Assembly: GCF_024502345.1 (NCBI RefSeq)
Contig: NZ_JALDNN010000001.1
Origin: Escherichia coli
GTDB lineage: Bacteria > Pseudomonadota > Gammaproteobacteria > Enterobacterales > Enterobacteriaceae
Strand: one strand, 5' to 3'
DNA: 64,000 nucleotides
The translations under genes were made by a program, and so were the position numbers. The notes beneath the pieces are model-generated. The model was not told where the DNA came from. It saw only the letters and a list, made by a program, of their open reading frames with translations, and did no database searches. This document shows, piece by piece, positions 7,892 through 45,620 of this stretch (positions within the stretch are counted from its first letter, which is position 1; each line of letters begins with the position of its first letter).

Positions 7892-8860
<969 letters not shown>

Positions 8861-18030: not shown

Positions 18031-18050
18031 GGTGTGACTCCTGATCATTA

Positions 18051-25323: not shown

Positions 25324-27012
25324 TTACAAATAGAGATAGTTCAGCGGTTCTCCTGTTTTCCCTAAAAGAAGAGCGCTACGCCCAGGAATATTGATATTTA
25401 GAGTTCCGCCTCTAAGCATAAATGCTTTACCAGGGGGGATAATTTTTCGGGTATTATTAATAATAATGTTAACGCTATTACTCCCCATGTTTTTATATTT
25501 TCCAGGTTGCAATTTGTTAGGCCAGGCACCTTCAACTTCTTCGTTTCCTTTATTTATTATAACTAGTCCATCATGAGGAGAGTGATTAATGTTCACCGAA
25601 TCCCCACGACTAAAGGCCAGAACGTTTTTAGTTGCAAATACACCCTCAAATGCGCTCCATATTCCTGCTTTATCTATATATAATGCGTGGAATTCATTGT
25701 AGAGCTGCTGATAGGTAGAGCAACCTTTATTAAGCCACGCCTCACCGCCGACACGCGTCGACCCATCATAATTTTTAATTTCAGTCGTTGATTTTAATAC
25801 TTGGCCATCCCAGTAAACTAAAGGCCTGCTGAACGGGAGAGCGGCCATATATGCCATTGCTAATTGTTCATCTTGTTGATGGTTAAATAGAAAGTCATTG
25901 AAAAGATTGCCATTGTTAGGAAAAACGTGGTTAATGTTAATCAATATCCGTCTTTTTGATGGGATGCTTGAGATTGTTGAACCCGGTTTTGATGCAAGGG
26001 TTTGGAGATCGCCACCAAATGAAAAAGCTTTTATCGTCTTCATGAGCAATGAAAAATCAATGGCGCTTAAATCATCTCTTTCATAAAGCAGCGATGACAT
26101 TTGTTGTTCATCCAACTGACAAGTTACCAGATATTCCATGTAATTCATAACGGCTTTTTCATGATATTTTGGGTTAAATAAGTTAGTATTGTGTAATCGC
26201 TCATTATAATTTTTAAGCGGTGGGGTTATTGATCTTTCTATTTGTTCATGTTTTGAGTGTTTTGCCGCATCATAACGTAAACCTCGTACGCCATATTTTC
26301 GCATTTCACGAACGTATTGATTTTGCAGCATAATAACCTGGTCACTTTTGGGGGTTGTTTTAGGCATTCCATTTAAACGCTTTTCTTTTAATGCATGGAG
26401 GTTTTCCCATTCATCCTTAGAAATATTATCTTTACTTGCTTCGAAGTCTTTTGCAGTGAGATGTATATCTTCTGGATGGATTTGTTTACGTTCTTTTGTT
26501 ACTGGATCTATAGTAAATGGAATCAAAACCTGACCTTGCCAATAGCCAGGGATACCACCTTCTATATCTTTACTGATCTTCGCTCGTATATCAGCAGAGG
26601 GATAATCCAGGTCATTTTTACCACTACCCCCGATTCCCATAAAGTTAAAGGTATAATCAGGAATGATATCGATACCAAATTTTTTAGCATCTTTAACCAA
26701 TGCGATAAAATCCTGCAAATCTCCCATTGGATTATGGATGGTACAAAGATCTTCGGGTTGATAAGCGTGAAACCAGTAACCTTTTTCTTCTTCGGGAGTT
26801 TCTGGTCCGTCGGCGCGGAAAGTTGTCACTGGAGGGATTTGTATATACCCATAATGGCAACGTGCAAACTCAGACATATTTTCCCTGATTTGCTGGTAGG
26901 TGGCATTAAAAGCATGAAGAATCGCTTCGCCAGGTTTTTTGGGGGTGATGATTTCACATTGTGATTTCTGAACAGCAGTAAGGGATTTACGCTCAAGTGT
27001 TTGCCGTAGATG
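25324..27012 (-). pseudogene. ygaQ: YgaQ-like glycoside-hydrolase-family protein, N-terminally truncated by IS3
   Basis: 517 aa ORF (25324-26877) with no upstream partner; coding region abuts IS3 left end at 27013. Confidence 0.7.
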
Positions 27013-27068
27013 TGATCTTACCCAGCAATAGTGGACACGCGGCTAAGTGAGTAAACTCTCAGTCAGAG

Positions 27069-27377
27069 GTGACTCACATGACAAAAACAGTATCAACCAG
27101 TAAAAAACCCCGTAAACAGCATTCGCCTGAATTTCGCAGTGAAGCCCTGAAGCTTGCTGAACGCATCGGTGTTACTGCCGCAGCCCGTGAACTCAGCCTG
27201 TATGAATCACAGCTCTACAACTGGCGCAGTAAACAGCAAAATCAGCAGACGTCTTCTGAACGTGAACTGGAGATGTCTACCGAGATTGCACGTCTCAAAC
27301 GCCAGCTGGCAGAACGGGATGAAGAGCTGGCTATCCTCCAAAAGGCCGCGACATACTTCGCGAAGCGCCTGAAATGA
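27069..27377 (+). CDS. insE: IS3 transposase OrfA (InsE)
   Basis: ...[53 protein letters not shown]...; probable true start at the second Met. Confidence 0.9.
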
Positions 27378-28240
27378 AGTATGTCTTTATTGAAAAACAT
27401 CAGGCTGAGTTCAGCATCAAAGCAATGTGCCGCGTGCTCCGGGTGGCCCGCAGCGGCTGGTATACGTGGTGTCAGCGGCGGACAAGGATAAGCACGCGTC
27501 AGCAGTTCCGCCAACACTGCGACAGCGTTGTCCTCGCGGCTTTTACCCGGTCAAAACAGCGTTACGGTGCCCCACGCCTGACGGATGAACTGCGTGCTCA
27601 GGGTTACCCCTTTAACGTAAAAACCGTGGCGGCAAGCCTGCGCCGTCAGGGACTGAGGGCAAAGGCCTCCCGGAAGTTCAGCCCGGTCAGCTACCGCGCA
27701 CACGGCCTGCCTGTGTCAGAAAATCTGTTGGAGCAGGATTTTTACGCCAGTGGCCCGAACCAGAAGTGGGCAGGAGACATCACGTACTTACGTACAGATG
27801 AAGGCTGGCTGTATCTGGCAGTGGTCATTGACCTGTGGTCACGTGCCGTTATTGGCTGGTCAATGTCGCCACGCATGACGGCGCAACTGGCCTGCGATGC
27901 CCTGCAGATGGCGCTGTGGCGGCGTAAGAGGCCCCGGAACGTTATCGTTCACACGGACCGTGGAGGCCAGTACTGTTCAGCAGATTATCAGGCGCAACTG
28001 AAGCGGCATAATCTGCGTGGAAGTATGAGCGCAAAAGGTTGCTGCTACGATAATGCCTGCGTGGAAAGCTTCTTTCATTCGCTGAAAGTGGAATGTATCC
28101 ATGGAGAACACTTTATCAGCCGGGAAATAATGCGGGCAACGGTGTTTAATTATATCGAATGTGATTACAATCGGTGGCGGCGGCACAGTTGGTGTGGCGG
28201 CCTCAGTCCGGAACAATTTGAAAACCAGAACCTCGCTTAG
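27374..28240 (+). CDS. insF: IS3 transposase OrfB (InsF), DDE
   Basis: 288 aa [35 protein letters not shown]... Confidence 0.9.
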
Positions 28241-28324
28241 GCCTGTGTCCATATTACGTGGGTAGGATCATAATGCTTTGGTTGCTGGCGTATCTGACAG
28301 CTTCTTCGGCGTGAAGGTCGTTGT

Positions 28325-29381
28325 GGCTTTGTTGAATAAATCAGATTTCGGGTAAGTCTCCCCCGTAGCGGGTTGTGTTTTCAGGCAATACGCACGCTTT
28401 CAGGCATACCTGCTTTCGTCATTTTGTTCAGCGCTCGTACCAGGGCCATAGCCTCTGCAACCTGACCATCGTAGTCACGCAGTGTCAGTGAACCCCCGAA
28501 CAGCTGTTTTACCCGGTACATCGCCGTTTCCGCTATCGAGCGACGGTTGTAATCTGTTGTCCATTTCCACCGCGCATTACTCCCGGTCATTCGCTGATTA
28601 GCCACTGCACGGTTACGGTCTGCATATTCACCGGGCCAGTAACCCGCACCTTTTCGGGGAGGGATAAGCGCGCTGATTTTCTTACGCCGCAGTTCATCGT
28701 GACATAGCCGGGTATCGTAAGCGCCATCGGCGGCGGCTGACCTGATTTTCCGGTGGGTTTGCCGGATTAACCCGGGGAAGGCCTCTGAGTCCGTAACGTT
28801 GTTCAGCGACAGGTCAGCGCAGATGATTTCATGTGTTTTACTGTCAACGGCGAGATGCAGCTTACGCCAGATACGGCGGCGTTCCTGGCCATGCTTTTTG
28901 ACTTTCCACTCGCCTTCACCGAAGACCTTCAGCCCGGTGGAATCAATTACCAGGTGTGCGATTTCACCCCGGGTGGGCGTTTTGAAACTGACATTAACCG
29001 ACTTTGCCCGCCTGCTGACACAGCTGTAATCCGGGCAGCGTAGCGGAACGTTCATCAGAGAAAAAATGGAATCAATAAAGCCCTGCGCAGCGCGCAGGGT
29101 CAGCCTGAATACGCGTTTAATGACCAGCACAGTCGTGATGGCAAGGTCAGAATAGCGCTGAGGTCTGCCTCGTGAAGAAGGTGTTGCTGACTCATACCAG
29201 GCCTGAATAGCTTCATCATCCAGCCAGAAAGTTATGGAGCCACGGTTGATGAGGGCTTTATTGTAGGTGGGCCAGTTGGTGATTTTGAACTTTTGCTTTG
29301 CCACGGAACGGTCTGCGTTGTCGGGAAGATACGTGATCTGATCCTTCAACTCAGCAAAAGTTCGATTTATTCAACAAAGCC
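28325..29381 (-). mobile_element. IS903-family element, complete (1057 bp)
   Basis: 18-bp terminal inverted repeats GGCTTTGTTGAATAAATC at both ends; flanking 9-mers differ (GGTCGTTGT vs TGTCCCCAT). Confidence 0.93.
28381..29349 (-). CDS. IS903-family DDE transposase
   Basis: 322 aa track ORF; YREK-type signature (YNRRSIAETAMYRVKQ); true start may be an internal GTG. Confidence 0.9.
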   Translation of the reverse strand: MKDQITYLPDNADRSVAKQKFKITNWPTYNKALINRGSITFWLDDEAIQAWYESATPSSRGRPQRYSDLAITTVLVIKRVFRLTLRAAQGFIDSIFSLMNVPLRCPDYSCVSRRAKSVNVSFKTPTRGEIAHLVIDSTGLKVFGEGEWKVKKHGQERRRIWRKLHLAVDSKTHEIICADLSLNNVTDSEAFPGLIRQTHRKIRSAAADGAYDTRLCHDELRRKKISALIPPRKGAGYWPGEYADRNRAVANQRMTGSNARWKWTTDYNRRSIAETAMYRVKQLFGGSLTLRDYDGQVAEAMALVRALNKMTKAGMPESVRIA

Positions 29382-29480
29382 TGTCCCCATTTGTAAATGG
29401 CTATGCTTAGTCCACATAGGTTAATGGTGTGATTATTAATTCTTTAACTAAATCAAGATAGTTAATGCATCATGGGAGAG

Positions 29481-29900
29481 TTATGCGGCAATAACTTTGC
29501 ATTTTTGAGACGAAACATAGTCACTCCACCATTGCATGAGAACCACCCGTTCAGTGAGATACTCTGCACGATTGTAGGCTGCAATTATTTCATCTTTCTT
29601 CGAGTGGGCAAGGGCGGCTTCTAAGACATCAGTCCTAAACTTGCCAGACTCCTCAGCAGCCGTTCTAGCAATGGATCGCATACCGTGAGCTACAAGCTCA
29701 CCTCCGAAACCCATACGGATTATGGCCGCATTAGCTGTTTGTTCATGCATGTGATTGAGTGGAGCTTTGATACTGGGGAACACCCACTCTCTATGCCCGC
29801 TGATGACTTTCATTAAATCCAAAACTCGCAAAGCTTCTTTGCTCAGTGGAACTTTGTGAGGCTTCTTCATTTTCATAAACTCCGCCGGGATGTTCCACAT
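29481..29900 (-). pseudogene. Tyrosine integrase, 3' fragment (C-terminal ~139 aa)
   Basis: Aligns with the C-terminus of the intact integrase at 45621-46862 (...HGMRSIARTAA...ALAHSKKDEIIAAYNRAEYLTERVVLMQWWSDYV); no upstream integrase-coding sequence; AT-rich. Confidence 0.75.
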
Positions 29901-30062
29901 GCCAGTTTCAATATCAATAGCCGCCTTTCGACGGTGTAGTGGGGAGAGTATTGCTTACAAACGTAATGAAATTGTTTGAGTAGCTAGGCTACTGCATAGG
30001 ATTATTTTGTTCTGTTAATATATCCGTTAATATAGATAGATTGATCCAATTGAGTTTAAGGA

Positions 30063-31772
30063 ATGAGTATGTTTCAGATATCAGCTGGAGTGTTCTTTGA
30101 TTTAGATAAAATAGAAAAACACGATGGCGCATTTGTTTTTTATTCAAATGTTGATGTGTCTTTCTCGGTGGAAAACACCTCCCCTCTTTTTAAAGCAAAT
30201 AAAATAAGTCATGATGGTATAAACTGTTATGTGGTAAACTATACTCTCCTGACCGAAAAACCAGAACGAATTGAAGCTGGAGTCGTAGTTAGGGCTGGTG
30301 ATGAGGATTATAGGCAACAATTTATTTTATTATGGGAATTCTATTTTGATTGTGTGGCTAGAGTAGAAAAAGAATCGGTTAAAAAAATATGTGCATTATC
30401 AAATTTTAATAAACATCACTCAAAAATTGCGCTTGAAGTTGCCCCATATTTAGTGGAGATTAACCGAAGAGTTTCATTTGATGATGTCTCTGGGTTTTCT
30501 GCTTTTATTAAAGATGTAGTGAATCTAAATAGATCTGCCTTTAAATCTTTAATGGCAGCGTTAAAAATAATTAGTGATTCAAAAGAATCATTGTCAACCA
30601 ACTTTGACCTGACTTATTCCATGTTAGTCTATGCCTTGGAGTCTTTGTCTCAAAGAAATGATAACTATAAGTCTGATTGGGATGACTACGATCAAAAAAC
30701 CAGAGGTGAATTAGAGTCTGTATTTGAGCATATGCCTGGTGAGGATGTTTGTAAAATTAAATCAATACTTATTGAAGGCAAACAATTCAGATTACAAAAA
30801 AGGTTCAAAGATTTTATACTGAAAAATCTTGAAGAAAATTATTTCAATGAAACAGAGAGATATCCAATCCGCTATAGCTTCCTTAGTAGAGCTTTAGATA
30901 ATTTATACAAAATCAGGTCTTCTTTTGTCCATGAGCTTAAGCCACTTGATGCAATGATCTCGAAAGCCTACAATCCTGTTGGTGATTGTCTGGTTCTTTT
31001 TGGCGAACCTCACTTCAGTTACTCTGGATTGCTTCGACTTCTTCGCCATGTGATAATAAATTTTTGCCGTAAAAACTACAGTCAAAAAAGAGAGTATGTT
31101 AATTGGGTGATGGAAACATCGGGTGTAATGGTTGCAGAGATATCTGCACAATATTGGCTCTGGAATGCAGACGGATTTACAGCTAAAAGTATAGCGAAGT
31201 GGTTTAGTGAATACCTAAATATGTTAAATTTAGGCGAAGTCACTGATTTGCAGTCTATCATGGACAAAATTGAGATAATCTATGACCAATCCAAAAAAGA
31301 ATATAAAAATGGGTTGTTGTATTTTTATTTCTTATATAACTTAATGCATAATGGAAATAAGGGTGAATGGCTTGAGTTTGCGAACAAGCGAAGTTCTATA
31401 CTTGTTTGTGATATATATTGGTATTCATGCTCTCCATATTTATATAAATCATTTACTAATGTTTCAAATGGTATTGCTGATATAAAAACATTGAGAAACT
31501 TTTTGTCTTGTTTTAACGAATATGATAAAAATAAATTTAAGCCAAATCGTTTAAATCTCCCTGCAATGACCGAAGTAATTATGTTGGCTTGCGCAGCAAA
31601 TTCATTCTTCAGAATTGGAATGTATCAAGACTATGTTTTAATGGGCAATAGAGCGATGAGAGAAATTGCTTCAGTAAAAGATGTATTTTATTATATAAAA
31701 GAACGATTAAGTAATTCACAACTTATTGAATTGGACGAGTGCTTGAGATTGTATAGAAAAAAAGGGGGCTAA
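30063..31772 (+). CDS. Hypothetical protein, 569 aa, AT-rich, no family recognised
   Basis: Single long ORF with strong AT bias; GAGT-containing RBS-like sequence before the ATG; bracketed by integrase 3' remnants and inverted IS903 copies. Confidence 0.75.
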   Translation: MSMFQISAGVFFDLDKIEKHDGAFVFYSNVDVSFSVENTSPLFKANKISHDGINCYVVNYTLLTEKPERIEAGVVVRAGDEDYRQQFILLWEFYFDCVARVEKESVKKICALSNFNKHHSKIALEVAPYLVEINRRVSFDDVSGFSAFIKDVVNLNRSAFKSLMAALKIISDSKESLSTNFDLTYSMLVYALESLSQRNDNYKSDWDDYDQKTRGELESVFEHMPGEDVCKIKSILIEGKQFRLQKRFKDFILKNLEENYFNETERYPIRYSFLSRALDNLYKIRSSFVHELKPLDAMISKAYNPVGDCLVLFGEPHFSYSGLLRLLRHVIINFCRKNYSQKREYVNWVMETSGVMVAEISAQYWLWNADGFTAKSIAKWFSEYLNMLNLGEVTDLQSIMDKIEIIYDQSKKEYKNGLLYFYFLYNLMHNGNKGEWLEFANKRSSILVCDIYWYSCSPYLYKSFTNVSNGIADIKTLRNFLSCFNEYDKNKFKPNRLNLPAMTEVIMLACAANSFFRIGMYQDYVLMGNRAMREIASVKDVFYYIKERLSNSQLIELDECLRLYRKKGG

Positions 31773-31932
31773 CCCCTTTTATTTTTAACGTATTCTCCCC
31801 ACCAATCCATCAATTCAATTCGCTGCACGAGATAAGTAGAACGATTGTATGCTTTTCTAACTTCATTTTTATCACTGTGGGCTAAGGCAGACTCGATAAC
31901 ATCAGGATTTAATCCAGCTTCATTCATGGCTG
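31769..31932 (-). pseudogene. Tyrosine integrase, 3' remnant (~50 codons), truncated by IS903
   Basis: Reverse strand translates ...AMNEAGLNPDVIESALAHSDKNEVRKAYNRSTYLVQRIELMDWWGEYVKNKRG*; abuts IS903 end at 31933. Confidence 0.55.
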
Positions 31933-32673
31933 GGCTTTGTTGAATAAATCGAACTTTTGCTGAGTTGAAGGATCAGATCACGTATCTTCCCGACAACGCA
32001 GACCGTTCCGTGGCAAAGCAAAAGTTCAAAATCACCAACTGGCCCACCTACAATAAAGCCCTCATCAACCGTGGCTCCATAACTTTCTGGCTGGATGATG
32101 AAGCTATTCAGGCCTGGTATGAGTCAGCAACACCTTCTTCACGAGGCAGACCTCAGCGCTATTCTGACCTTGCCATCACGACTGTGCTGGTCATTAAACG
32201 CGTATTCAGGCTGACCCTGCGCGCTGCGCAGGGCTTTATTGATTCCATTTTTTCTCTGATGAACGTTCCGCTACGCTGCCCGGATTACAGCTGTGTCAGC
32301 AGGCGGGCAAAGTCGGTTAATGTCAGTTTCAAAACGCCCACCCGGGGTGAAATCGCACACCTGGTAATTGATTCCACCGGGCTGAAGGTCTTCGGTGAAG
32401 GCGAGTGGAAAGTCAAAAAGCATGGCCAGGAACGCCGCCGTATCTGGCGTAAGCTGCATCTCGCCGTTGACAGTAAAACACATGAAATCATCTGCGCTGA
32501 CCTGTCGCTGAACAACGTTACGGACTCAGAGGCCTTCCCCGGGTTAATCCGGCAAACCCACCGGAAAATCAGGTCAGCCGCCGCCGATGGCGCTTACGAT
32601 ACCCGGCTATGTCACGATGAACTGCGGCGTAAGAAAATCAGCGCGCTTATCCCTCCCCGAAAAGGTGCGGGTT
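31933..32673 (+). mobile_element. IS903-family element, truncated second copy (~741 bp), inverted relative to copy 1
   Basis: Starts with GGCTTTGTTGAATAAATCGAACTTTTGCTGAG; identical to copy 1 up to ...AAAGGTGCGGGTT, then diverges into the yfjP-like fragment. Confidence 0.9.
31965..32673 (+). pseudogene. IS903-family transposase, C-terminally truncated
   Basis: First ~236 codons identical to the copy-1 transposase; track ORF continues in unrelated out-of-frame sequence. Confidence 0.8.
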
Positions 32674-33094
32674 GCATCACACCGTTCCAGAACTGCTCGT
32701 CCACCGACAGCGCACGGTCATCAGCTTTGATGACCCACAGCACCAGGTCAAGCTCTGGCAGCATACGCCGGTACAGGGCGCGGTATTCATGGTCCCGTTG
32801 TCCGTTCTCTCCCACGCCCGGTAAATCAACAATCACCAGACTGTGACGACCACTGCGCAGCCGGAAGCGCAGTATGTCGCGGGTGCAGGCGTTCACATCA
32901 CTGACGGCGGAGACTTCCCCCCGAAAGAGTTCGTTACAGAGCGACGACTTACCGGCACCACTCTTGCCCATGATGCCAATCACCGGCTCGTAGTGGGTCA
33001 GATTCTGAATACGTTCAAGAATAAGCTGGCGAAGCGTATCGGGAAGCGACGCCAGCGGTTTTTCCAGGGCCTGAAGGCCATCAGTTTTATTCAT
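32674..33094 (-). pseudogene. yfjP: YfjP/YkfA/YeeP-family GTPase, N-terminal fragment
   Basis: MNKTDGLQALEKPLASLPDTLRQLILERIQNLTHYEPVIGIMGKSGAGKSSLCNELF... (P-loop GKSGAGKS); cut short at the IS903 junction. Confidence 0.75.
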
Positions 33095-33726
33095 ACAGGG
33101 TTCTCAGCGTGAAAAACAAAAATCCCCGCGCTCCGGTCAGGGAGGCGGGGGATTCACGGAGATAATATCTATCTGAATTTATTTAGAATATAAGCAGGCT
33201 CATGTAACTGTAGCAGTGTCAACTTTACATCACAGCTCATGTTGGCTGGTGGTATTTTGCCAATAGTAGACATTTACGCCTAGGTTTAGATATCGAAATT
33301 AGTACACCAATATAGATACAGCAAAGAGGGAACTGATTTGTCTGCGCGAGACTAGAACCGTTGCCCCCTGTGGTTCGATGGATTGCAGGAAAATCATTTC
33401 CGGTGCTGAAGAGAGCCTCCGATACAACCTGAGAATATTTTAAGAACATCAAAATGAATGACGTAATTTACTCAAAGGCGATTGCCTAATATGTCATGAT
33501 ATTAGTAGCATTTAATTGCGTGAAAGTTTGTATATTCTTTTGAATTTATCTCAAAGCTAAAACCTCGTCAAAAATACACAAAAGGGTTTTGAGAAACAAG
33601 AGCCTGATGCTGAATCTGCTACAGAGCTGGGTTCTGTTCTGTTAAACTTGCGGTTAAAAATTTCCAAGAAAACCTAGGATATGACATGAGTTCACTGCAC
33701 ACCAGTAGTAGCAGCAGGGCGGTCAC

Positions 33727-36540
33727 ATGCCAATGGAGAGCTGTACGCAAATGAACGCCGTAGAAATTGAACAAGCCATCACGGATCTTGCAGAGCAACC
33801 CTTTGATCCTATAGAGTTTCCTTATGCTTTTCTTGAAGCCTTTGGTAACAAGGAAACGACTGTCAAACGCTTGCGCGCCGGTGCATCAAACAAATCCGAC
33901 TTGGGCGGTGTTCTCCAGAGCAATAATATTCACATTCTGACCTGCGAAGCAGGGACTGTGACTCAGATGTTGGCCGCGCTCAAGGCTAGCCCTGCGACAA
34001 CTAAAGCCAAGGCGAAGTTCATCCTGGCTACAGATGGCAAAGATTTCGAAGCTGAAGACCTCGTTAGCGGTCAGACTGTCGCTTGCGCCTTTAAAGACTT
34101 CCCAGATCACTTCGGCTTTTTCTTGCCATTAGCAGGCATTAGCACAGTTCGTCAGATTTGTGAGAACTCCTTTGACATTCGGGCCACTAGCCGGCTGAAT
34201 CGTCTGTATGTCGAGTTGTTGAAAGATAACCCTACCTGGGGGACGGCGGAGCGACGTCATGACATGAACAAATTCATGACTCGGCTGATCTTTTGTTTTT
34301 TCGCTGAGGATACTGACATTTTCGTGGGTAAGGGACGCTTTACTGAAACCGTTGCGCAGATGAGTACAAGAGATTCGTCGAATACGCATGAAGTTATCGC
34401 TACCTTGTTTCGTGCCATGAACACCAGTAACAAAGATAGAGCCGCCGCTGGCATCCCGCGCTGGGCCAATGAGTTTCCTTATGTCAACGGACGCTTGTTC
34501 TCTGGGAGTAATGATGTACCACTGTTCAGTAAGATTGCACGGTCTTATTTGCTCCATGTGGGTAGCCTTGACTGGACCAAGATTAATCCGGATATCTTTG
34601 GCTCGATGATTCAGGCAATTGCCGAAGACGAAGAACGCGGAGAGCTGGGGATGCATTACACCAGCGTACCCAACATCTTAAAAGTTTTGAATCCACTATT
34701 TCTGGACGACCTGCGCGCAAAGCTGGATGAGGCGGGTGACAATCCGCGTATGTTGCTTAACCTGCGTAAGCGCATTTCCCACATCCGTGTGTTCGACCCA
34801 GCGTGCGGTTCTGGTAACTTTTTGGTTATCGCGTACAAGGAAATGCGTGCCATTGAGGCCGAAATCAACAAGCGGCGTAATGAGCCAGATCGCGCCTCGG
34901 ATATCCCACTTACCAACTTTCGCGGGATTGAACTAAGAGATTTCCCGGCAGAGATCGCCCGCCTTGCGCTTGTTATCGCTGAGTACCAATGTGATGTACT
35001 GTACCGTGGGCTGCGGTTGGCCTTGGCTGAGCTTCTTCCGTTACGCAACGAAAATTGGATTACCTGTGGCAATGCACTACGGCTCGACTGGTTAAGAATT
35101 TGCCCGCCGACAGGAACAGGTGTGAAATTACATGGCGATGACTTGTTTGGATCTCCGCTTGATCAGGCAGAGATCGACTTTGAGAATGAAGGCGGAGAGA
35201 CATACATTTGCGGTAACCCACCATACCTTGGTTCAAAGTGGCAGACGGATGAACATAAAGCTGATCTTGGCACAATCTTTTCTGGTCGCGTGAAAAATTG
35301 GAAATCGCTCGATTATGTTGCTGGCTGGTTCCTGAAAGCCGCTGACTATGGTAGCCAGACAAGTTCCCAGGCTGCTTTTGTTGCCACTAATTCAATCAGC
35401 CAAGGGCAGCAAGTGTCGATTCTGTGGCCGGAAATATTCAAGGCAGGACAAGAGATTAGTTTCGCTTACACGAGCTTTAAGTGGTCGAACCTCGCTACTC
35501 ACAACGCCGGGGTCACAGTTGTTATCATCGGAATTTCTAACTGTGTAGGAAAGTCGCGACGCCTCTTTTCGGCTGGAGGAGACAATGGTGCGACGACGTG
35601 TCGTGAGGTGGAGCGCATCAACGCCTATTTGATCGCTGGCCCTAACATCATTGTGGAGGGGGACAGTTGTCCAGCCGACAGTCTTGCAACGATGCAGTTC
35701 GGTAACCACCCGTACTATGGTGCATCACTGATCTTTTCGAGATCTGAAGCACAGCAGATGATGTCTGTCGATCCGCGTACGGCGCGTTTTATTCGCCCAC
35801 TATATGGCTCCCAAGAGTTCATTTCCGCTGTGCCACGAGCCTGTCTATGGATTAACGACGATGAGGCTGACGAAGCGGGGACGATTCCTCTGATAGCTGA
35901 GCGTATGAGCGCCGTAGCAAGTGCTAGACGTGCAAAAAAACAAGACAAGGCAGCCCAGAAACTGGCTAAGACTCCATATCGCTTTCGCGACCAGCAGACA
36001 TCTACGAATCATATTCTTGTGGTTCCTCGAGTCAGTTCAGAGAACCGTCCTTGCTTGCCGGTTGGATTACTTGACTCTGACTCTATCGTTCAAGATCAAG
36101 CATTCGCCCTTTACGACGCTCCTCTCTGGAACCTCGCCATCATAGCGAGTCGCCTGCATCTAGTTTGGATCGCCACGGTTTGTGGAAAGTTAGAGACACG
36201 CTACCGCTATTCAAACACCCTCGGCTGGAATACTTTCCCGCTCCCAACACTCACTGAGAAAAATAAGGCAGACCTCACGCGCTGTGCAGAGGATATTCTT
36301 CTGACTAGGGAGCATCACTTCCCTGCAACCATTGCAGACCTTTATGACCCCGAGAAGATGCCAGACGACCTGCGTATTGTGCACGAGCGTAATGACGAAG
36401 TGCTTGAGCGTATTTACATTGGGCGCCGCTTTAAGAATGACACAGAGCGGCTTGAGAAGCTGTTTGACCTTTATACTAAGATGGCCGCTTCAACTGCATC
36501 GGGCAAAAGCAATAAACGTAAAGTGGGAACCAATGCATGA
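33727..36540 (+). CDS. MmeI/PglX-like gamma-class N6-adenine DNA methyltransferase, 937 aa; no recognisable N-terminal PD-ExK motif
   Basis: Motif X-like HYTS, motif I VFDPACGSGNFLV, motif IV ICGNPPYLG; other blocks (RLIFCFFAEDTDIF, FPYVNGRLF, AFVATNSISQGQQVSILWP, LETRYRYSNTLGWNTFP) resemble the MmeI/PglX family from memory. Start could be Met-9 (33751). Confidence 0.85.
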   Translation: MPMESCTQMNAVEIEQAITDLAEQPFDPIEFPYAFLEAFGNKETTVKRLRAGASNKSDLGGVLQSNNIHILTCEAGTVTQMLAALKASPATTKAKAKFILATDGKDFEAEDLVSGQTVACAFKDFPDHFGFFLPLAGISTVRQICENSFDIRATSRLNRLYVELLKDNPTWGTAERRHDMNKFMTRLIFCFFAEDTDIFVGKGRFTETVAQMSTRDSSNTHEVIATLFRAMNTSNKDRAAAGIPRWANEFPYVNGRLFSGSNDVPLFSKIARSYLLHVGSLDWTKINPDIFGSMIQAIAEDEERGELGMHYTSVPNILKVLNPLFLDDLRAKLDEAGDNPRMLLNLRKRISHIRVFDPACGSGNFLVIAYKEMRAIEAEINKRRNEPDRASDIPLTNFRGIELRDFPAEIARLALVIAEYQCDVLYRGLRLALAELLPLRNENWITCGNALRLDWLRICPPTGTGVKLHGDDLFGSPLDQAEIDFENEGGETYICGNPPYLGSKWQTDEHKADLGTIFSGRVKNWKSLDYVAGWFLKAADYGSQTSSQAAFVATNSISQGQQVSILWPEIFKAGQEISFAYTSFKWSNLATHNAGVTVVIIGISNCVGKSRRLFSAGGDNGATTCREVERINAYLIAGPNIIVEGDSCPADSLATMQFGNHPYYGASLIFSRSEAQQMMSVDPRTARFIRPLYGSQEFISAVPRACLWINDDEADEAGTIPLIAERMSAVASARRAKKQDKAAQKLAKTPYRFRDQQTSTNHILVVPRVSSENRPCLPVGLLDSDSIVQDQAFALYDAPLWNLAIIASRLHLVWIATVCGKLETRYRYSNTLGWNTFPLPTLTEKNKADLTRCAEDILLTREHHFPATIADLYDPEKMPDDLRIVHERNDEVLERIYIGRRFKNDTERLEKLFDLYTKMAASTASGKSNKRKVGTNA

Positions 36541-38582
36541 GCAACAAGATTAGATCTGTACCGTCAGTTTCTGTTACCTACTCACGCAACGGAGCATCGA
36601 CCAAGGCTAATTCTCTTGGGATGCGTCCTATGCAAGAAAGGGCTTATGAGAAGCGCGGAGAACAATATCTTCTCATAAAGTCGCCGCCCGCCTCTGGCAA
36701 GAGTCGTGCGCTGATGTTCGTCGCACTCGATAAACTCGCAAACCAGGGGATCAAACAGGCAATCATTGTCGTGCCGGAAAAATCTATCGGCGCGAGCTTC
36801 AACGATGAACCGCTATCGCAGTTTGGATTCTGGGCTGATTGGCATGTTGAACCTAAGTGGAATCTGTGCAACGCCCCCGGTAACGACAACGGCGGCAAGG
36901 TAAAATCTTTCGGCTCTTTTCTTGAAAGTAGCGACAAGGTGCTTGTTTGTACACACGCAACCTTTCGCTTCGCGGTCGATGCCTACGGTGTAGAGGCGTT
37001 TGACGATCGCCTGATCGCCGTCGATGAATTTCACCATGTGTCCGCTAACCCGGATAACAAGCTTGGTCAGCATCTGGGACAGTTCATTGAGCGTGACAAG
37101 ACGCACATCGTGGCCATGACCGGCTCCTACTTCCGGGGAGATGCGGAAGCCGTTTTGGCTCCTCAGGATGAGTCTAGGTTCGATACCGTCACCTACACCT
37201 ACTACGAACAACTCAACGGTTACGAATACCTCAAACAGCTTGATATCGGATACTTCTTTTATAGTGGATCATACATTGATGACATCCTCAATGTCCTCGA
37301 TCCTGACAAGAAAACGATTATCCATATTCCCAACGTCAATTCGCGCGAGAGTACGAAGGATAAAATTAAGGAGGTGGAGCACATTCTGAGCGAGCTTGGC
37401 GATTGGCAAGGTGCGGATCCTACGACTGGTTTTCAGCTAGTCAAGCGCCCCGATGGCCATGTGTTGCGTATTGCTGACCTGGTGGACCCAGCCAGTCAAG
37501 GCAAGATTCAGGAAAGCCTCCGAGCTCCAGAAATGAAGACAGACCGTGACTATGTAGACATCATTATTGCACTTGGTATGGCGAAGGAAGGTTTCGACTG
37601 GATCTGGTGCGAACATGCGCTGACTGTTGGCTACCGTGCCAGCCTGACTGAGATCGTGCAGATTATCGGTCGCGCTACTCGCGACGCGCCGGGTAAAACC
37701 CGCGCGAGATTTACTAACTTGATCGCCGAGCCCGACGCTGTAGAGGGCGCAGTAACTGAGGCAGTCAACGATACCTTGAAAGCTATCGCGGCGAGCCTGT
37801 TGATGGAACAGGTACTGGCTCCGCGCTTCGAGTTCAAGCCCAAGAATCCTGAAATCGGTCCGACTCCAGGCTTTGATTATGGTGATGGAGGATATGACCC
37901 GGATAGCTGCAATTTTGGTGTTAATGAGCAGACAGGGACGTATCAAATCGAGATTAAGGGACTTGCCGAGCCTAGGAGCAAAGAGGCGGCACGTATCTGC
38001 CAGGAAGATTTAAACGAAGTGATCGCGGCCTTTGTGCAGGATAAGCCCGCCATCGAACGAGGCCTGTTCGATGAAGAGCTGATCCCTGAAGAGTTAACAC
38101 AGGTTCGTATGGGTAAGATCATCAAAGAAAAGTATCCTGAACTTGATGCTGAAGATCAGGAGGCTGTACGTCAGCATGCTATCGCCGCCCTTAACCTCAC
38201 GCAGCAGGCCAAGCGTCTTGCTACCGGTGAAAACGATGGGACGCTCAATACTGCTCTTATTGACGGAGTGCGTCGCTTTGCAATGGATGTGCGCGATTTA
38301 GACATAGACCTTATCGACCGCATCAATCCCTTTGGTGAAGCCTACGCTATCCTTGCTAAGACGATGAGTGAAGACAGTTTGAAGCAGGTCGCGGCGGCCA
38401 TCTCGGCCAAGCGTACTTCGATCACGCCTGAAGATGCCAAGGTGATCGCCAAGCGTGCCGCTGAATTCAAACGTGAACGTGGGCGCCTCCCATCGTTAAC
38501 TTCGCTGGATGCTTGGGAAAAACACCTTGCTGAAGGTGCAGCCGCGTTTATGCGTTTTAGGGCGGAGGGACGTTATGAGTAA
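36537..38582 (+). CDS. SF2 DExH-box helicase (ResIII-like), 681 aa, with ~270 aa C-terminal region of unknown function
   Basis: Motif I PPASGKS, motif II AVDEFHHV, motif III MTGS, motif VI QIIGRATRD; ATG overlaps the methyltransferase stop (ATGA). Confidence 0.85.
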   Translation: MSNKIRSVPSVSVTYSRNGASTKANSLGMRPMQERAYEKRGEQYLLIKSPPASGKSRALMFVALDKLANQGIKQAIIVVPEKSIGASFNDEPLSQFGFWADWHVEPKWNLCNAPGNDNGGKVKSFGSFLESSDKVLVCTHATFRFAVDAYGVEAFDDRLIAVDEFHHVSANPDNKLGQHLGQFIERDKTHIVAMTGSYFRGDAEAVLAPQDESRFDTVTYTYYEQLNGYEYLKQLDIGYFFYSGSYIDDILNVLDPDKKTIIHIPNVNSRESTKDKIKEVEHILSELGDWQGADPTTGFQLVKRPDGHVLRIADLVDPASQGKIQESLRAPEMKTDRDYVDIIIALGMAKEGFDWIWCEHALTVGYRASLTEIVQIIGRATRDAPGKTRARFTNLIAEPDAVEGAVTEAVNDTLKAIAASLLMEQVLAPRFEFKPKNPEIGPTPGFDYGDGGYDPDSCNFGVNEQTGTYQIEIKGLAEPRSKEAARICQEDLNEVIAAFVQDKPAIERGLFDEELIPEELTQVRMGKIIKEKYPELDAEDQEAVRQHAIAALNLTQQAKRLATGENDGTLNTALIDGVRRFAMDVRDLDIDLIDRINPFGEAYAILAKTMSEDSLKQVAAAISAKRTSITPEDAKVIAKRAAEFKRERGRLPSLTSLDAWEKHLAEGAAAFMRFRAEGRYE

Positions 38583-39753
38583 TTCTGATTTAGACGATTT
38601 GGCGGCAGAACTTGCTGAATTTGCACCACCGGAGAAGAAAAAAGGACGTCCAGCCAGCGAGGAACGCATCATCGCAGGTTTTGAGGAAATCCAGCGCTTC
38701 GCTGACCAACATGGACGTGCGCCGCAACACGGCGAAGAGCGTGAGATCTTTGAGCGCCTCTATGCAGTGCGGCTCGACCGGCTACGCAGTCTCCCAGACT
38801 GCCGTGCCTTGCTAGAGCCGCTGGATCATCAAGGCTTATTGGCTGGAGGGGGTGATGTAGCGGAGTCAGCGGACGAAATTATCGATATCGATAATTTGGC
38901 TGCCGAACTGACGGATGTTTCCAGCGAGGATGATATCACAGTCTTGCGTCATGTTCGTGCTAGCGCCGAAAAGCGTGCTGTACAAGGGATCGCGGATCGC
39001 AAGCCGTGCGAGGATTTTGATACATTCAAACCGCTATTTGAACAGGTGCGCAGTGATCTAAGTTCAGGGTTAAGAGTGACCCGACCTTTTGGACAGTATG
39101 CAACGATTGAAGTGGGCCATTGGTTCATCCTGGATGGTCAAACGGCTTATGTGGCTGAGGAAGGTGAAGAGTTCGATTCTCCACAGGGGAAGAAAGATGC
39201 TCGGCTGCGTGTCATTTATTCGAATGGTACAGAAAGTAACCTGCTTCGGCTGTCATTAGTTCGTGCTTTGTATAAAGACGAAACAGCACGTCGAATTACC
39301 GATCCAGACATGGGGCCTTTATTCAGCGATGCTCTAGAAGAGAGCGATCTAGAAAGTGGCACCATTTATGTATTGCGTTCGCTATCAGATAACCCTTATG
39401 TGGCCGAACATCGTGATGTTATTCACAAGATTGGTGTGACTGGCGGCAAGGTCGAGACTCGTATTGCTAATGCTGAACACGATTCCACCTATCTGTTGGC
39501 GAAGGTAGAGGTGGTCGCTTCATACAAACTCGCAGGTATCAACCGCACCCGGATGGAAAACCTGTTTCACAGGTTGTTTGCACCCGCAAGGCTTAACATT
39601 ACCATTAACGACCGTTTCGGCCATCCAGTACAGCCCGAGGAATGGTTTCTCGTTCCGTTATTCGTTATCGATGAGGCTGTTGCACGTATTAAGGATGGTA
39701 GCATCATTGGGTATGTTTATGACCCCATGTCTGCGAAACTGGTGAAGGCATAG
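38575..39753 (+). CDS. GIY-YIG-like / T5orf172-like domain protein, ~392 aa (tentative domain call)
   Basis: GGAGG RBS then ATG at 38575 overlapping helicase stop (ATGAGTAA); C-terminal region GTIYVLRS...YVAEHRDVIHKIGVTGGKVETRIAN resembles GIY...YIG-R; acidic N-terminus. Confidence 0.65.
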   Translation: MSNSDLDDLAAELAEFAPPEKKKGRPASEERIIAGFEEIQRFADQHGRAPQHGEEREIFERLYAVRLDRLRSLPDCRALLEPLDHQGLLAGGGDVAESADEIIDIDNLAAELTDVSSEDDITVLRHVRASAEKRAVQGIADRKPCEDFDTFKPLFEQVRSDLSSGLRVTRPFGQYATIEVGHWFILDGQTAYVAEEGEEFDSPQGKKDARLRVIYSNGTESNLLRLSLVRALYKDETARRITDPDMGPLFSDALEESDLESGTIYVLRSLSDNPYVAEHRDVIHKIGVTGGKVETRIANAEHDSTYLLAKVEVVASYKLAGINRTRMENLFHRLFAPARLNITINDRFGHPVQPEEWFLVPLFVIDEAVARIKDGSIIGYVYDPMSAKLVKA

Positions 39754-39868
39754 TGAAGTGACACACTGAATTTGGCCACCTGTTCTGAGGTGAGTATATC
39801 ACCTCAGAACAGCACAGGAATAAAAGATACTGATTTGAATGTACCTATACTTTGCGATGTGAGGATCA

Positions 39869-40660
39869 ATGAATAGTAACCTGACCAAGATATGTTACCG
39901 TGGTGAGACTGGTGAAAGTGATCTAAGAACGTTGATACTTGGTGAGATTCTATATATCTCACTACGAGATGTTTTAATCACGCTGAATAAAGAAAATAGA
40001 GAAATCAACGCTGATTACACAGTAAAATCGATGGCTGGAATAATCAGGGCGCAATTACAGGCTCTTGACCCTGATGAGTATATTACTACAGATGCTGAAA
40101 ATGGTGTTTTTGAAGGTCAGAAAGAGATCTTCGTCACCCAGCCAGGTTTGTATCGAGTCATGTCAAGTGACCGAAGCGCTGCCGGTAAGCGCTTTCAAAA
40201 ATGGTTATTTCATGAAGTCATACCATCATTGACTAAGCATGGTGTATACCCGCCTCCGCCAGAAGCGAAAGGTTCAGCCCTTGCACAAATGGCTGAGATA
40301 CTTGCTCAAAATTCGCGAGCACTTGCTGACGCAATCCATAAACACGAAAAACTGGCCGAAGATGTCTCACAGGTTAAAGGTAAAGTTGCCAACGTTGAAA
40401 GCCGTCTGGAACTGTTAGAATCAGGTCCTTCCACTGTAACTGAAGATATGCATACTCTTGATAGCCGTCTCGCTTATTTGGACATGAGCATGGAAGAAAA
40501 GCATACCACCGAGACATTAGCCTGGTGCGAGAATATTTCTGTTCAAAATAACAGGAAGGTGATTCGCAAGGACTGTAGGGAGAATTCGCTCTTTACAACG
40601 CAGACTATCGACGAAGCAATCGCTATCATGACTGAAAGTGGAAAAATCACACCAAATTGA
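39869..40660 (+). CDS. Bro-N domain protein (phage antirepressor-like), 263 aa
   Basis: ...GLYRVMSSDRSAAGKRFQKWLFHEVIPSLTKHG matches the Bro-N/Ant hallmark (F..W...EV.PSI); coiled-coil-like C-terminal half. Confidence 0.7.
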   Translation: MNSNLTKICYRGETGESDLRTLILGEILYISLRDVLITLNKENREINADYTVKSMAGIIRAQLQALDPDEYITTDAENGVFEGQKEIFVTQPGLYRVMSSDRSAAGKRFQKWLFHEVIPSLTKHGVYPPPPEAKGSALAQMAEILAQNSRALADAIHKHEKLAEDVSQVKGKVANVESRLELLESGPSTVTEDMHTLDSRLAYLDMSMEEKHTTETLAWCENISVQNNRKVIRKDCRENSLFTTQTIDEAIAIMTESGKITPN

Positions 40661-40748
40661 AGATCCTGGGGTTCAGATTATCTGCTGGCTATCTTATTGA
40701 GCTCTGACGTAAAATAGGCCTTCCCACAAAGAGAAGGCCATTGCCGAC

Positions 40749-41375
40749 TTACAGATCGATTTGGCTACAGCCGAAGTTACGGTCTCCTTCACCAAACACT
40801 TTGCTTTCGACTTTGGTGAGGTAATCCAGTCGGGTTAACAGCGCTTGGTAGTTATGCTGGAAGTCAGCATTATTGGTATCCAGCACGTACTTACAGTTGT
40901 CAGGAAAATGGACCAGACCAGGGTGATCATCCAGTTTCAGTCCCAGGGCGCTGTACCACGCTCCCGTAATCATCCCTCTCAGGTTATCGTGCTGATCGTA
41001 ATCCCCGAGGTGGTAGTAAGCGTCTTTGTTGAACAACAGGCAAATGTGGTAGTGGCATTTACCTGACTCAGAATACTCTTTCGCCCATATAATAAATAAA
41101 GGGCAACGGTAGATGCGTTTACCTTCACGCTCCTTACGGGTACGGTCAGCCTCCAGTTTAGCTCTGAGGGAATCACGCATTCGGGATATCACCCCTGGTT
41201 CAAGATTAGGGAAACAGCAGATATTGTCTCCGTTATCGACTATCTTCGGATAATGCAGATCGACACGTACCGCCGTTAACCTGGGGTAACGGTTAGTCAA
41301 ATAACATAATAATTTTTTAATCTTGATCTGATATTCGAGGATATGTACTCCATGAGTACCTTGATATGTTTTCAT
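40749..41375 (-). CDS. YagK/YfjJ-family protein (inovirus Gp2-like)
   Basis: 208 aa ORF with Cys/His-rich stretch (CHYHICLLFNKDAYYH); family assignment from memory of CP4-57/CP4-6 yfjJ/yagK. Confidence 0.6.
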   Translation of the reverse strand: MKTYQGTHGVHILEYQIKIKKLLCYLTNRYPRLTAVRVDLHYPKIVDNGDNICCFPNLEPGVISRMRDSLRAKLEADRTRKEREGKRIYRCPLFIIWAKEYSESGKCHYHICLLFNKDAYYHLGDYDQHDNLRGMITGAWYSALGLKLDDHPGLVHFPDNCKYVLDTNNADFQHNYQALLTRLDYLTKVESKVFGEGDRNFGCSQIDL

Positions 41376-41646
41376 AATATATATCTGTATTTGGTCCTAC
41401 GGTCTATAGCAGACCGTACAGGGATGCCATACAGGCAGGGCTATTCCTGGTCACTGTTGTCGGTATATACTGGTATCAGATCTTAGTACGGATATACTGA
41501 TCTGATTACTACTCTTACTGGTGAATACAGGTAGTAAGAGTACACAATGCCATTATATAATACCTATCCAACATCTAAATTTGAGACGAAGGTAGCCCCA
41601 GCCTGTGATGGCTGTTAAAAAGTTACTCTGCAATTAGCTTCTGGAA

Positions 41647-42216
41647 TTAACCGATGATTCCGTTATTCCAGTGCCGCTTCACAGTCGATAAACTGATACT
41701 CAATTTCTTTGCAATCTCAGCCTGAGTAAATCCACCTTTCTTAAGTATTGTGATATCACGTCGGTATTTGCTTCCCTCCTTTCGTCCTAATTTCTTCTTA
41801 ACATGTCGATATCGGCTTTTAGTTGATTTCAGATTGTGAATGTCAATCGTATCCTGACGAGCAATCAAAAAAGACAAGCAACTTTCAGCAGAAGGCTCTA
41901 TCCTTGAAGCTGGATGGTAGCTGTAGATAAAAATTTCTTTTTGAAGGCAAAAAAATAAAATATTCTGTAAGTCCTCCACAGTTCTGCCAAGACAGCTTAG
42001 ATCTGGAATGACAAGCGTGTCCTGCCGGTTCATTTCATGATGAATCAATTGTCTGAGTAAACGTTGCTCTGAAACAACCTCTTTAATATCTACCTGCTCG
42101 ATCACAACATGTTCAGGTAGAATATTAAATTTTTGGCATATCTCAGCAAGTGAGTGATGATCTGTAATGCTTTCTTGCTGTTCGCTACTGCATATGGTGT
42201 AAAAAAATGAACGCAT
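41647..42216 (-). CDS. Serine recombinase-like protein (resolvase/invertase fold), possibly catalytically altered
   Basis: From internal Met: MRSFFYTICSSEQQ (cf. YARVSTxxQ), LVIPDLSCLGRTVEDL (cf. DRLGR), C-terminal HTH GFTQAEIAKKLSISLSTVKRH. Track ORF extends to 42345. Confidence 0.6.
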   Translation of the reverse strand: MRSFFYTICSSEQQESITDHHSLAEICQKFNILPEHVVIEQVDIKEVVSEQRLLRQLIHHEMNRQDTLVIPDLSCLGRTVEDLQNILFFCLQKEIFIYSYHPASRIEPSAESCLSFLIARQDTIDIHNLKSTKSRYRHVKKKLGRKEGSKYRRDITILKKGGFTQAEIAKKLSISLSTVKRHWNNGIIG

Positions 42217-42371
42217 CTGATGCACTCCGGTGTCATAAATTATTCTTTGATACCTGAACAATGTCATTTTGTATAAAAAATAACCAAAAATAGAGCGTGA
42301 TTGCCAGCGATACTTTGAGTGGTAAAGTAGTATTTTACCTCTCATAATTGTTTGTCCTTCTTTGTTACCTC

Positions 42372-43085: not shown

Positions 43086-43245
43086 CTCAGATTCATTTTT
43101 GTGCGTAAAAGTGTATTTTTTATTGGAAATGTTTTTTACTCCTTATAATTAACATTGCTATTAATTAATCCTGTTTGTAAAGGAGAAGTTTATTAATAAG
43201 TAAAAGTCCGCCTGCATCAAGACACGATGAAAATGTCTTCCTTTC

Positions 43246-45558: not shown

Positions 45559-45587
45559 AACTTCTCATTATTTTTTCCAAAAATAAG

Positions 45588-45612: not shown

Positions 45613-45620
45613 AAGTAGAA

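Follow-up and report, generated by a model that had tools for sequence, protein, structure and literature searches.

Two copies of IS903 lie in inverted orientation around a gene of 569 codons in the 64-kb stretch of Escherichia coli DNA that we analyzed (hereafter the window). These copies are the scars of separate insertions and deletions within mobile islands that are stacked at ssrA and decaying, and there is no transposon carrying the 569-codon gene. The region very probably represents the eroded ssrA-targeting elements of one chromosome, namely a CP4-57-like island next to ssrA, a P4-like satellite, and an island of the type found in E. coli C. Comparison with related sequences indicates that the 2551-bp passenger between the copies is native and was not imported.

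An inverted IS903 pair that lacks one outer end

The complete copy (28325-29381, minus strand) is of the IS903B type. It is 1057 bp long with perfect terminal repeats of 18 bp, as the first-pass annotation had described, and encodes an intact transposase. Its 33-nt terminal regions are at 28325-28357 and 29349-29381. The intact transposase ORF (28381-29349, minus strand) matches NF033579 (IS5-family transposase, 357 bits) and is identical at 321 of 322 amino acids to a transposase named "IS903B family" by PGAP; the element as a whole has 99.3% nucleotide identity to an annotated IS903B. By its length, terminal repeats, single DDE transposase ORF, and near-identity to IS903B, the element belongs to the IS903 group (IS5 family). 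It is probably still an active IS.

The second copy (31933-32673, plus strand, 741 bp counted from its inner end), correctly described before as inverted and truncated, is 100% identical to nucleotides 317-1057 of the complete IS903. The 316 bp that are gone held the outer inverted repeat and the C-terminus of the transposase. A repeat search returned 28641-29381 and 31933-32673 as inverted arms of 741 nt each, 100% complementary, with a spacer of 2551 nt. The 18-bp terminal repeat (GGCTTTGTTGAATAAATC) occurs exactly three times in the window, at 28325-28342 (plus), 29364-29381 (minus), and 31933-31950 (plus), for 0.13 occurrences expected from shuffles. No fourth repeat was found in the 64 kb, even when allowing three mismatches, and none at or near 32673; the window also has no further IS903 copies.

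The complete copy is flanked by GGTCGTTGT on the left and TGTCCCCAT on the right and has no 9-bp duplication, because of a 3.56-kb deletion at this place. The truncated copy has TCATGGCTG on its inner side and a nonexistent outer end; since that end is deleted, a duplication is not assessable there. The flanks thus agree with the earlier statement that neither copy has matching 9-bp target duplications.

A unit of the Tn903 type depends on two outer IS ends in inverted orientation. Here, two IS903 copies surround a passenger but the right outer terminal repeat is absent, so the unit 28325-32673 cannot transpose. The unit as a whole has no flanking 9-bp duplication either: its left flank is GGTCGTTGT and its right boundary is an internal fusion between the IS and a GTPase gene. 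Finally, the passenger is not foreign to the site, being contiguous with its native flanks in a related contig (L007). The proposal of a Tn903-like arrangement therefore holds for the geometry of the inverted pair but not for a composite transposon, since the outer end, the duplication, and the co-mobility all fail. What the region shares with Tn903 (V00359) is two inverted 1057-bp elements of the IS903 group around a short passenger, with one intact transposase gene. In contrast to Tn903, one IS lacks 316 bp with the right outer end, no 9-bp duplication is present, the passenger is local DNA native to the site, and the unit has never been seen elsewhere and cannot work as a transposon.

One might still suppose that a genuine Tn903-like composite transposon captured the 569-codon gene elsewhere, inserted here, and was later damaged at its right end, given the identical inverted copies around a passenger of low GC content (0.34) and a geometry as in Tn903 (PMC12670165). 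We regard this as extremely improbable. It is already contradicted by L007, in which native DNA runs on from either side of the passenger without IS903. The passenger also consists of two pieces of neighboring ssrA elements that keep their native orientation, the left IS903 stands for the loss of 3.56 kb of native DNA instead of a simple insertion, and no duplication surrounds the unit. The comparison with related genomes that had been suggested as a check gave no discrete transposon: the IS903-flanked unit was found in 0 of 5,426 complete E. coli genomes, and the inner 2551-bp segment in 0 of 72,556 plasmids.

Remains of three elements at ssrA

All three elements attach at the gene ssrA (tmRNA; 47045-47407, minus strand), of whose 3' end the window retains a single copy. 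The flanks are collinear with the gab/amylase and smpB regions of E. coli, and the window lacks the side with tRNA-Ile and ypjA that relatives have. These matches indicate an E. coli-type ssrA locus, in which positions 27013-47044 are what is left of three ssrA-targeting elements, with their native order and orientation unchanged.

The remainder of the CP4-57-like island (33095-47044, minus strand) is collinear with a related sequence (L004) at 97-98% identity. Its genes encode an MmeI-like methyltransferase, a helicase, a GIY-YIG nuclease, BRO-N, YagK/YfjJ-like, YagL, YagM, and AlpA proteins, and the integrase IntA (45621-46862, minus strand). With the CP4-57 prophage and other E. coli ssrA islands it shares the ssrA 3' attachment site, an intA-type integrase, and a yfjP-like GTPase; in relatives, it also has the distal antirestriction/RadC/CbtA-type module. 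Compared with CP4-57 of K-12, the MmeI-like methyltransferase, helicase, and GIY-YIG cassette stand in place of abpAB/rnlAB, and the distal half is deleted here. In L027, L030, and TB06052, tandem arrays at ssrA combine a proximal CP4-57-like island with a distal one of the IntC type. Ten contexts of the DUF4942 gene included tandem arrays of other composition, and none was the exact CP4-57-like/P4-like/C-type ancestor.

At the left edge of the rearranged region, a chromosomal gene of the alpha-amylase family (25324-27012, minus strand) has lost its 5' end. Positions 26901-27013 match 18633-18745 of L005, which carries an E. coli C-type island, within the amylase CDS (17056-19308). An IS3 lies on the deletion junction (27013-28270, plus strand; 1258 bp, 99.8% identical to the IS3 of L005), and its flanks, ATG and TAA, show no 3-bp duplication. 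The following 54 bp (28271-28324) remain from the distal part of an ssrA island of the E. coli C type, immediately downstream of the parB genes, and match L002 4385-4439, L005 22949-23003, L006 5705-5759, and L007 31-85. The junction between IS3 and the 54 bp is also found at the end of L007.

The bracketed segment is native DNA

The segment between the IS903 copies carries integrase fragments and the 569-aa ORF, as previously reported, and its 2551 bp agree with the 2.55 kb given then. Its left part (29382-29919, minus strand) comprises 99 bp of downstream DNA and the 3' 439 bp (last 140-149 codons) of a C-type integrase gene; it is 99.8% identical to L002 8001-8538, and tblastn covers IntC residues 261-409. 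Its right part (29916-31932, plus strand; GC content 0.337) is the remnant of a P4-like satellite, made up of 147 bp of upstream DNA, the hotspot gene for 569 aa, and 164 bp from the 3' end of the P4-like integrase gene (fragment at 31769-31927, minus strand). It is 99.75% identical to 8001-10017 of the ATCC 8739 sequence (L001), where the order is psu, ORF, int, ssrA. Both integrase fragments (29481-29900 and 31769-31927, minus strand) match the NF007246 integrase. The hotspot gene and 164 bp of int are all that the window has of the satellite: for the core (psu, delta/ogr, primase alpha, int), nothing from L001 1-8000 was found in it.

The two parts meet at a junction, J2, where a three-way alignment identified a 4-bp microhomology (AATA, 29916-29919) between the interior of the C-type integrase gene and the P4-like psu-ORF intergenic region. 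J2 is off any IS terminus and has the signature expected of a microhomology-mediated illegitimate deletion. It is also present in L006 and L007, and it is older than the IS903 events.

The whole segment is in native order and orientation relative to ssrA, with all integrase remnants on the intA strand. This bears on the idea that one intramolecular replicative transposition of the precursor of the truncated copy produced the inverted pair by duplicative inversion. IS903 is capable of replicative transposition (PMC11708052), and the copies are indeed inverted, identical, and without matching duplications. However, such an event would flip the DNA between the copies, whereas the 2551 bp are oriented as in L006, L007, ATCC 8739, and E. 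coli C and the integrase remnants are all still on the intA strand. It would also leave the 3.56-kb loss and the internal truncation unexplained. We thus rejected duplicative inversion, which is highly improbable for a segment collinear with its relatives.

A 3.56-kb deletion at the complete IS903

The complete IS903 occupies the exact place of 3.56 kb, with two parB genes and a serine recombinase gene, that are kept in relatives. Its flanks map to separated collinear points (5759 and 9320 in L006; 4439 and 8001 in L002), which bound the deletion at L006 5760-9319 and L002 4440-8000. Likewise, 3.56 kb separate the counterparts of 28271-28324 and 29382-29919 in the island of E. coli C type (L002, L005). 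The genes of this interval are absent from the whole 64-kb window. With an intact IS at the junction and flanks that are apart in relatives, the complete IS903 appears to be the product of an IS-associated deletion; adjacent deletion and recombination between two direct IS903 copies are indistinguishable from the sequence. Its junctions were seen only in this window, the right one was absent from JGI metagenomes, and the 43-aa ORF spanning the right one is not on record.

IS903 forms adjacent deletions and cointegrates, IS elements at deletion junctions have no duplications, and two-step adjacent deletion is the established route for IS903 (PMC11708052, PMC12670165). IS903 adjacent deletions and IS-Del share with our case the intact IS at a deletion junction and the lack of target duplication (Bernardi & Bernardi 1991, cited in PMC12670165; PMC11708052). 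Here the end product alone is seen, and adjacent deletion, two-copy recombination, or capture into a break could each have led to it. The last route, IS-Del, has been put forward for E. coli C and an IS5 element of the IS903 subgroup (PMC11708052). It would replace the two-step route by the capture of a new IS903 into a chromosome break during the 3.56-kb deletion, without target cutting by the transposase. The published pattern is identical (an intact IS central to the deletion, no duplication), and we found no intermediate among relatives with the complete IS903 and the full 3.56 kb. Yet the final sequence would be the same as for adjacent deletion and does not discriminate, and the two-step route is already established for IS903; we therefore consider IS-Del improbable.

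The truncated IS903 and its fusion to a GTPase gene

The inner end of the truncated copy (junction J3, 31932/31933) is also found in L006 and L008-L011. A strong IS903 target consensus at J3 was rejected, as the site fits WTTYA-N9-TRAAW weakly. As for an intact precursor with its 9-bp duplication, the hypothetical Int(1-346)-IS903 chimeric protein was not on record, and the corresponding DNA junction was absent from JGI metagenomes.

At the other end (junction J4, 32673/32674), the copy is fused to a yfjP-like GTPase fragment, as had been noticed: the first 140 codons of the gene (32674-33094, minus strand), from the ssrA-proximal CP4-57-like island. The fragment has 65% amino-acid identity to YfjP of K-12. 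Its nucleotides are 100% identical to L003 8997-9527, from a gene that is complete there and encodes 291 aa; from 32670 onward, the window matches the KCJ3K291 GTPase. At least 8.5 kb, the distal half of the CP4-57-like island, are missing at J4. The junction recurs in other assemblies, with a chimeric 160-aa ORF across it in L014 and L015. A three-way alignment revealed a 4-bp microhomology (GGTT, 32670-32673) between the IS903 interior and the GTPase gene. J4 lies 316 bp inside IS903, away from any IS terminus, and is not a product of the IS903 transposase, because the latter acts only at IS termini. A cryptic IS903 end was rejected, the sequence at J4 being unlike the terminal repeat. J4 would rather be an ordinary illegitimate, microhomology-mediated deletion. 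An IS-mediated deletion after insertion had been proposed for the truncated copy. Deletion did follow insertion, but the IS-mediated one is the 3.56-kb loss at the complete copy.

An 88%-identical relative of IS903 occupies the homologous codon of an integrase in GPEC1405; that integrase is 65% identical, and the orientation of the insertion agrees. We raise, as an unlikely reading, that P4-family integrase genes have, close to their 3' end, a conserved codon (around residue 344) that is a recurrent insertion hotspot for the IS903 group. If so, satellites and islands would be repeatedly grounded, and later deletions would strip all but useful cargo; the cargo retained here would be the intact HEPN_Apea-like gene with its terminator, which survived several nearby breakpoints.

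Order of events

In L007, the inner 2551 bp are continuous with the DNA on both sides and IS903 is absent from both sites. The order is IS3 end, 54 bp, parB, parB, recombinase, int', ORF, intact 398-aa int, and ssrA-type att, the left side keeping the 3.56 kb (two parB, one recombinase) missing in the window. L007 thus seems to represent the state before IS903. L006 is 100% identical over 29382-32071, with the 3.56 kb intact and the right-hand IS903 without the left-hand one. It is possibly an intermediate state, although this contig, from a k=141 metagenome assembly, could be chimeric between two strains. The window shares the IS3/54-bp junction with L007 but not L006, and the J3 insertion with L006 but not L007. 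Because the junctions are split in this way, the order of events needs recombination or one recurrent insertion.

The sequences show an older deletion at J2, which took the core of the satellite together with the distal integrase gene's 5' part and left the satellite with its hotspot gene and its integrase alone. They also show an IS903 insertion into the satellite integrase gene at 31932/31933 (J3), a complete IS903 lying exactly where the 3.56 kb (parB, parB, recombinase) are missing, and the other copy cut 316 bp from its outer end and joined to the GTPase gene at J4. We infer that J2 came first, followed by J3 and then by J4 and J1, the site of the complete copy. The complete IS903 would have arrived by ordinary transposition, possibly from the precursor of the truncated copy, and would have lost its duplication by adjacent deletion or by recombination between two direct copies. 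J2 and J4 would be transposase-independent illegitimate recombination. The first-pass annotation had named two independent insertions without co-mobility of the segment as the reading opposed to its own, and this is essentially what we find, except for intact target duplications, which were not found.

The 569-aa ORF

The 569-aa ORF (30063-31772, plus strand) is intact, ends near a bidirectional terminator (31760-31780), and is an ApeA-like HEPN candidate defence gene of the P4 psu-int hotspot. It had been called an orphan, but it is catalogued: Rousset et al. 2022 (PMC9122126) list it in Tables S1A, S1B, and S2B under the label HEPN_Apea ("likely a RNase", 42 loci), and cloned it as pFR83 "HEPN-TPR". 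There, the near-identical gene of ATCC 8739 is among the "additional tested systems", outside the validated defence systems. The Rx4-6H motif has R285 and H290 invariant across 30 homologues, down to 18% identity, and there is a partial match to PADLOC Cas13-ApeA (E = 7e-6). Searches of Pfam, NCBIfam, PHROGs, and PDB sequences gave no match, and Foldseek of the model (pLDDT 84) against the PDB gave insignificant TPR-like matches alone. The gene is shared with the hotspot of the ATCC 8739 satellite (PMC9122126), but here psu, delta, primase, and most of int are gone and the gene is stranded, with no mobile satellite.

Implications

The bracketed 2.55 kb are not cargo, and the IS903 pair, having lost the outer repeat, is unable to move them. 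Since the inner end of each copy points at the segment, the pair is inside-out and the segment corresponds to its "donor backbone". Homologous recombination between the perfect inverted repeats of 741 bp could still invert the segment. The finding is ordinary and leaves the current understanding of IS903, composite transposons, and P4 hotspots unchanged. It illustrates that an inverted IS pair around a gene is insufficient for calling a composite transposon. It also gives a clean stepwise example of tandem ssrA islands eroding via IS-associated and microhomology deletions, and of a candidate defence gene, once carried by a satellite, that is now stranded in the chromosome.

An inverted IS903 pair at the ssrA locus

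The repeat search identified a complete IS903 of 1057 bp with terminal repeats (copy 1, 28325-29381) and a second, inverted copy at 31933-32673 (copy 2). The arms, 28641-29381 and 31933-32673, each span 741 nt with 100 % complementarity and are separated by 2551 nt. Three instances of the 18-bp end GGCTTTGTTGAATAAATC are present in the 64 kb of the window (28325, 29364 on the minus strand, and 31933), against 0.13 expected in shuffled sequence. No fourth end was found in the window, even allowing three mismatches, nor were there further IS903 copies beyond the pair. The transposase ORF of copy 1 is intact (322 codons, IS5 family, NF033579 score 357 bits) and shares 321 of 322 residues with a PGAP 'IS903B family' transposase; at the nucleotide level, the copy is 99.3 % identical to an annotated IS903B. 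Since its flanks are GGTCGTTGT and TGTCCCCAT, copy 1 has no 9-bp duplication. Copy 2 stops at 32673, where it directly abuts codons 1-140 of a GTPase gene whose product is 65 % identical to K-12 YfjP. Hence, what the first-pass annotation had observed is confirmed: a complete element with terminal repeats, an inverted 741-bp truncated copy about 2.55 kb away, no matching 9-bp target duplications, and a fusion of the truncated copy to a yfjP-like GTPase fragment. Its interpretation is supported only in part.

Left of 27013 the DNA is chromosomal and of E. coli type, with the gab operon, glaH and an alpha-amylase-family gene; thousands of genomes match it, the best at 98.2 %. Right of 32673 lies a CP4-57-like island, collinear with E. 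coli 2013C-4282 at about 97 %, whose last gene, intA (45621-46862), adjoins ssrA, the tmRNA gene (47045-47407, minus strand). The IS903 pair is therefore located at the distal end of the ssrA integration hotspot, and a single copy of the ssrA 3' end is left in the window. The island also carries, at 33727-39753, a widespread three-gene set (328 index blocks) resembling a defence cassette: an MmeI-like fused methyltransferase/restriction-type protein (937 aa), a DEAD/DEAH helicase (681 aa) and a T5orf172/GIY-YIG nuclease (392 aa).

Origin of the pieces and earlier states in relatives

Local BLAST against annotated relatives assigned every piece of the stretch that separates the amylase gene from the GTPase fragment. 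An IS3 (27013-28270, no 3-bp duplication) is followed by a 54-bp remnant (28271-28324) matching positions 4385-4439 of L002, the reference for the ssrA island of E. coli C, just downstream of its parB genes. This IS3 links a 5'-truncated alpha-amylase-family gene (from 25324) straight to the remnant; relatives have a side with tRNA-Ile, ypjA and ypjB/ypjC, which is deleted in the window. Beyond copy 1, 29382-29919 is the 3' part of a C-type integrase (L002 8001-8538, the last 439 bp of the gene and 99 bp downstream). The stretch 29916-31932 is a P4-like satellite remnant, 99.75 % identical to E. coli ATCC 8739, where the counterpart lies within a P4-like satellite that has integrated at ssrA; the gene order there is psu, hypothetical protein, int, ssrA. 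From 32670 onward, the GTPase gene part is 100 % identical to that of strain KCJ3K291. Every integrase remnant lies on the intA strand, and no piece is turned around relative to its counterpart in an intact element. Missing from the window are the P4 core and the parB/recombinase genes.

We retrieved relatives by exact-protein look-up of the bracketed 569-aa ORF (30063-31772) and aligned them to the window; two contigs were informative. L007 (Logan, ERR3153746) reads IS3 end, 54 bp, parB, parB, recombinase, int fragment, ORF, intact 398-aa P4-type int and start of an ssrA-type att. In this alignment it lacks IS903 at both sites and is 99.96 % identical to the inner 2551 bp. L006, an ENA metagenome contig, is 100 % identical to 29382-32071, including 139 bp of copy 2; it lacks copy 1 and retains 3.56 kb with parB, parB and recombinase. 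Two ThiF-family proteins and an ABC/UvrA-like ATPase of 722 aa are encoded in its first part (1-5169), which holds distal C-type island cargo and may be another defence-type module. Four shorter contigs, from 11 samples or more, also contain the int/IS903 junction (31932/31933), and a chimeric 160-aa ORF spanning the IS903/GTPase junction is present in two further assemblies. Neither junction was found in the 5,426 complete RefSeq E. coli genomes, the matches being confined to a few ENA and Logan assemblies, and the copy-1 junctions were found in no other assembly searched.

The IS3/54-bp junction of the window recurs in L007 and not in L006; for the IS903 insertion in int the reverse applies, L006 having it and L007 lacking it. 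Ordering the events exactly therefore calls for recombination or recurrent insertion, unless L006 is a chimera, as a metagenome contig could be. Recurrent insertion is not far-fetched: in E. coli GPEC1405 (L012 3880-5144), a P4-family integrase of 65 % identity is interrupted at the homologous codon, near residue 344, by an IS903-group element of 88 % overall identity in the same orientation. This codon could be a target hotspot of the IS903 group; the site in the window fits the published IS903 motif, WTTYA-N9-TRAAW, weakly.

The bracketed unit and its ORF

The IS903-bracketed unit is not a composite transposon. The Tn903-like reading proposed initially fails since the right outer repeat is missing from the window (18-bp end search), no direct duplication surrounds the whole unit, and the 'passenger' is native DNA that runs uninterrupted into both flanks in L007. 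Moreover, a check for the unit as a discrete transposon found it in 0 of 5,426 complete E. coli genomes; the inner segment was in none of 72,556 plasmids. The usable IS903 ends left are copy 1's own pair and the two inner ends. As both inner ends face the 2.55-kb segment, this segment would be donor backbone, not cargo. Homologous recombination between the 741-bp perfect inverted repeats could invert it.

The 569-aa ORF, previously labelled an orphan, finds no sequence match in Pfam, NCBIfam, PHROGs or PDB, and has a partial PADLOC match to Cas13-ApeA (E = 7e-6). Its homologues form about 70 clusters in Enterobacterales, Vibrio, Aeromonas and others, one of them named 'Apea-like HEPN domain-containing protein', and its Rx4H motif (R285, H290) is retained without change in 30 homologues. 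The AlphaFold model (pLDDT 84) gave no significant PDB fold match, just weak TPR-like ones. The protein is near-identical to ATCC 8739 WP_000486482, a listed locus of the psu-int defence hotspot of P4-like satellites (Rousset et al. 2022, PMC9122126). In that study the family is system 38, 'HEPN_Apea' (42 loci, 'likely a RNAse'), cloned as pFR83 'HEPN-TPR' and placed among the 'additional tested systems', not the validated ones. Given this listing and cloning, the ORF is not an orphan but an already known, catalogued candidate, a HEPN_Apea-like gene that occupies the psu-int defence hotspot of P4.

Junctions and erosion of the region

The junctions were resolved by three-way alignments. At copy 1, the complete IS903 replaces 3560 bp (L006 5760-9319). 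The element is an intact IS at a deletion junction, a pattern typical of an adjacent deletion or of two direct copies having recombined. Adjacent deletions and cointegrates are documented for IS903, and IS elements located at deletion junctions carry no duplications (PMC11708052; PMC12670165). Copy 2 was inserted in the P4-type int gene, after TCATGGCTG. One-step duplicative inversion is ruled out for the pair: it would have left the intervening segment inverted, which it is not.

At the other end of copy 2 (32670-32673), IS903 nucleotide 741 is joined via GGTT to the GTPase gene. Transposase chemistry is confined to IS termini and this join lies 316 bp inside the element, so it is best explained by microhomology-mediated illegitimate recombination. 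The IS-mediated deletion after insertion invoked earlier thus holds for the complete copy but not for the truncated one. About 8.5 kb that relatives carry beyond the GTPase gene, encoding WYL, DUF905, DUF932, antirestriction, RadC, CbtA/CbeA and DUF4942 proteins, is absent from the whole window. The same explanation best accounts for 29916-29919, where AATA joins the C-type integrase interior to the P4-like psu-ORF intergenic region; this join predates the IS903 events, since L006 and L007 already have it. Both non-IS junctions are 4-bp microhomologies, which suggests that the same illegitimate-recombination route was repeatedly active at the ssrA locus. The region is most probably a tandem set of ssrA elements eroded by deletions; broadly comparable tandem arrays at ssrA were found in TB06052, L027 and L030. 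The IS903 case is a known kind of genome decay.
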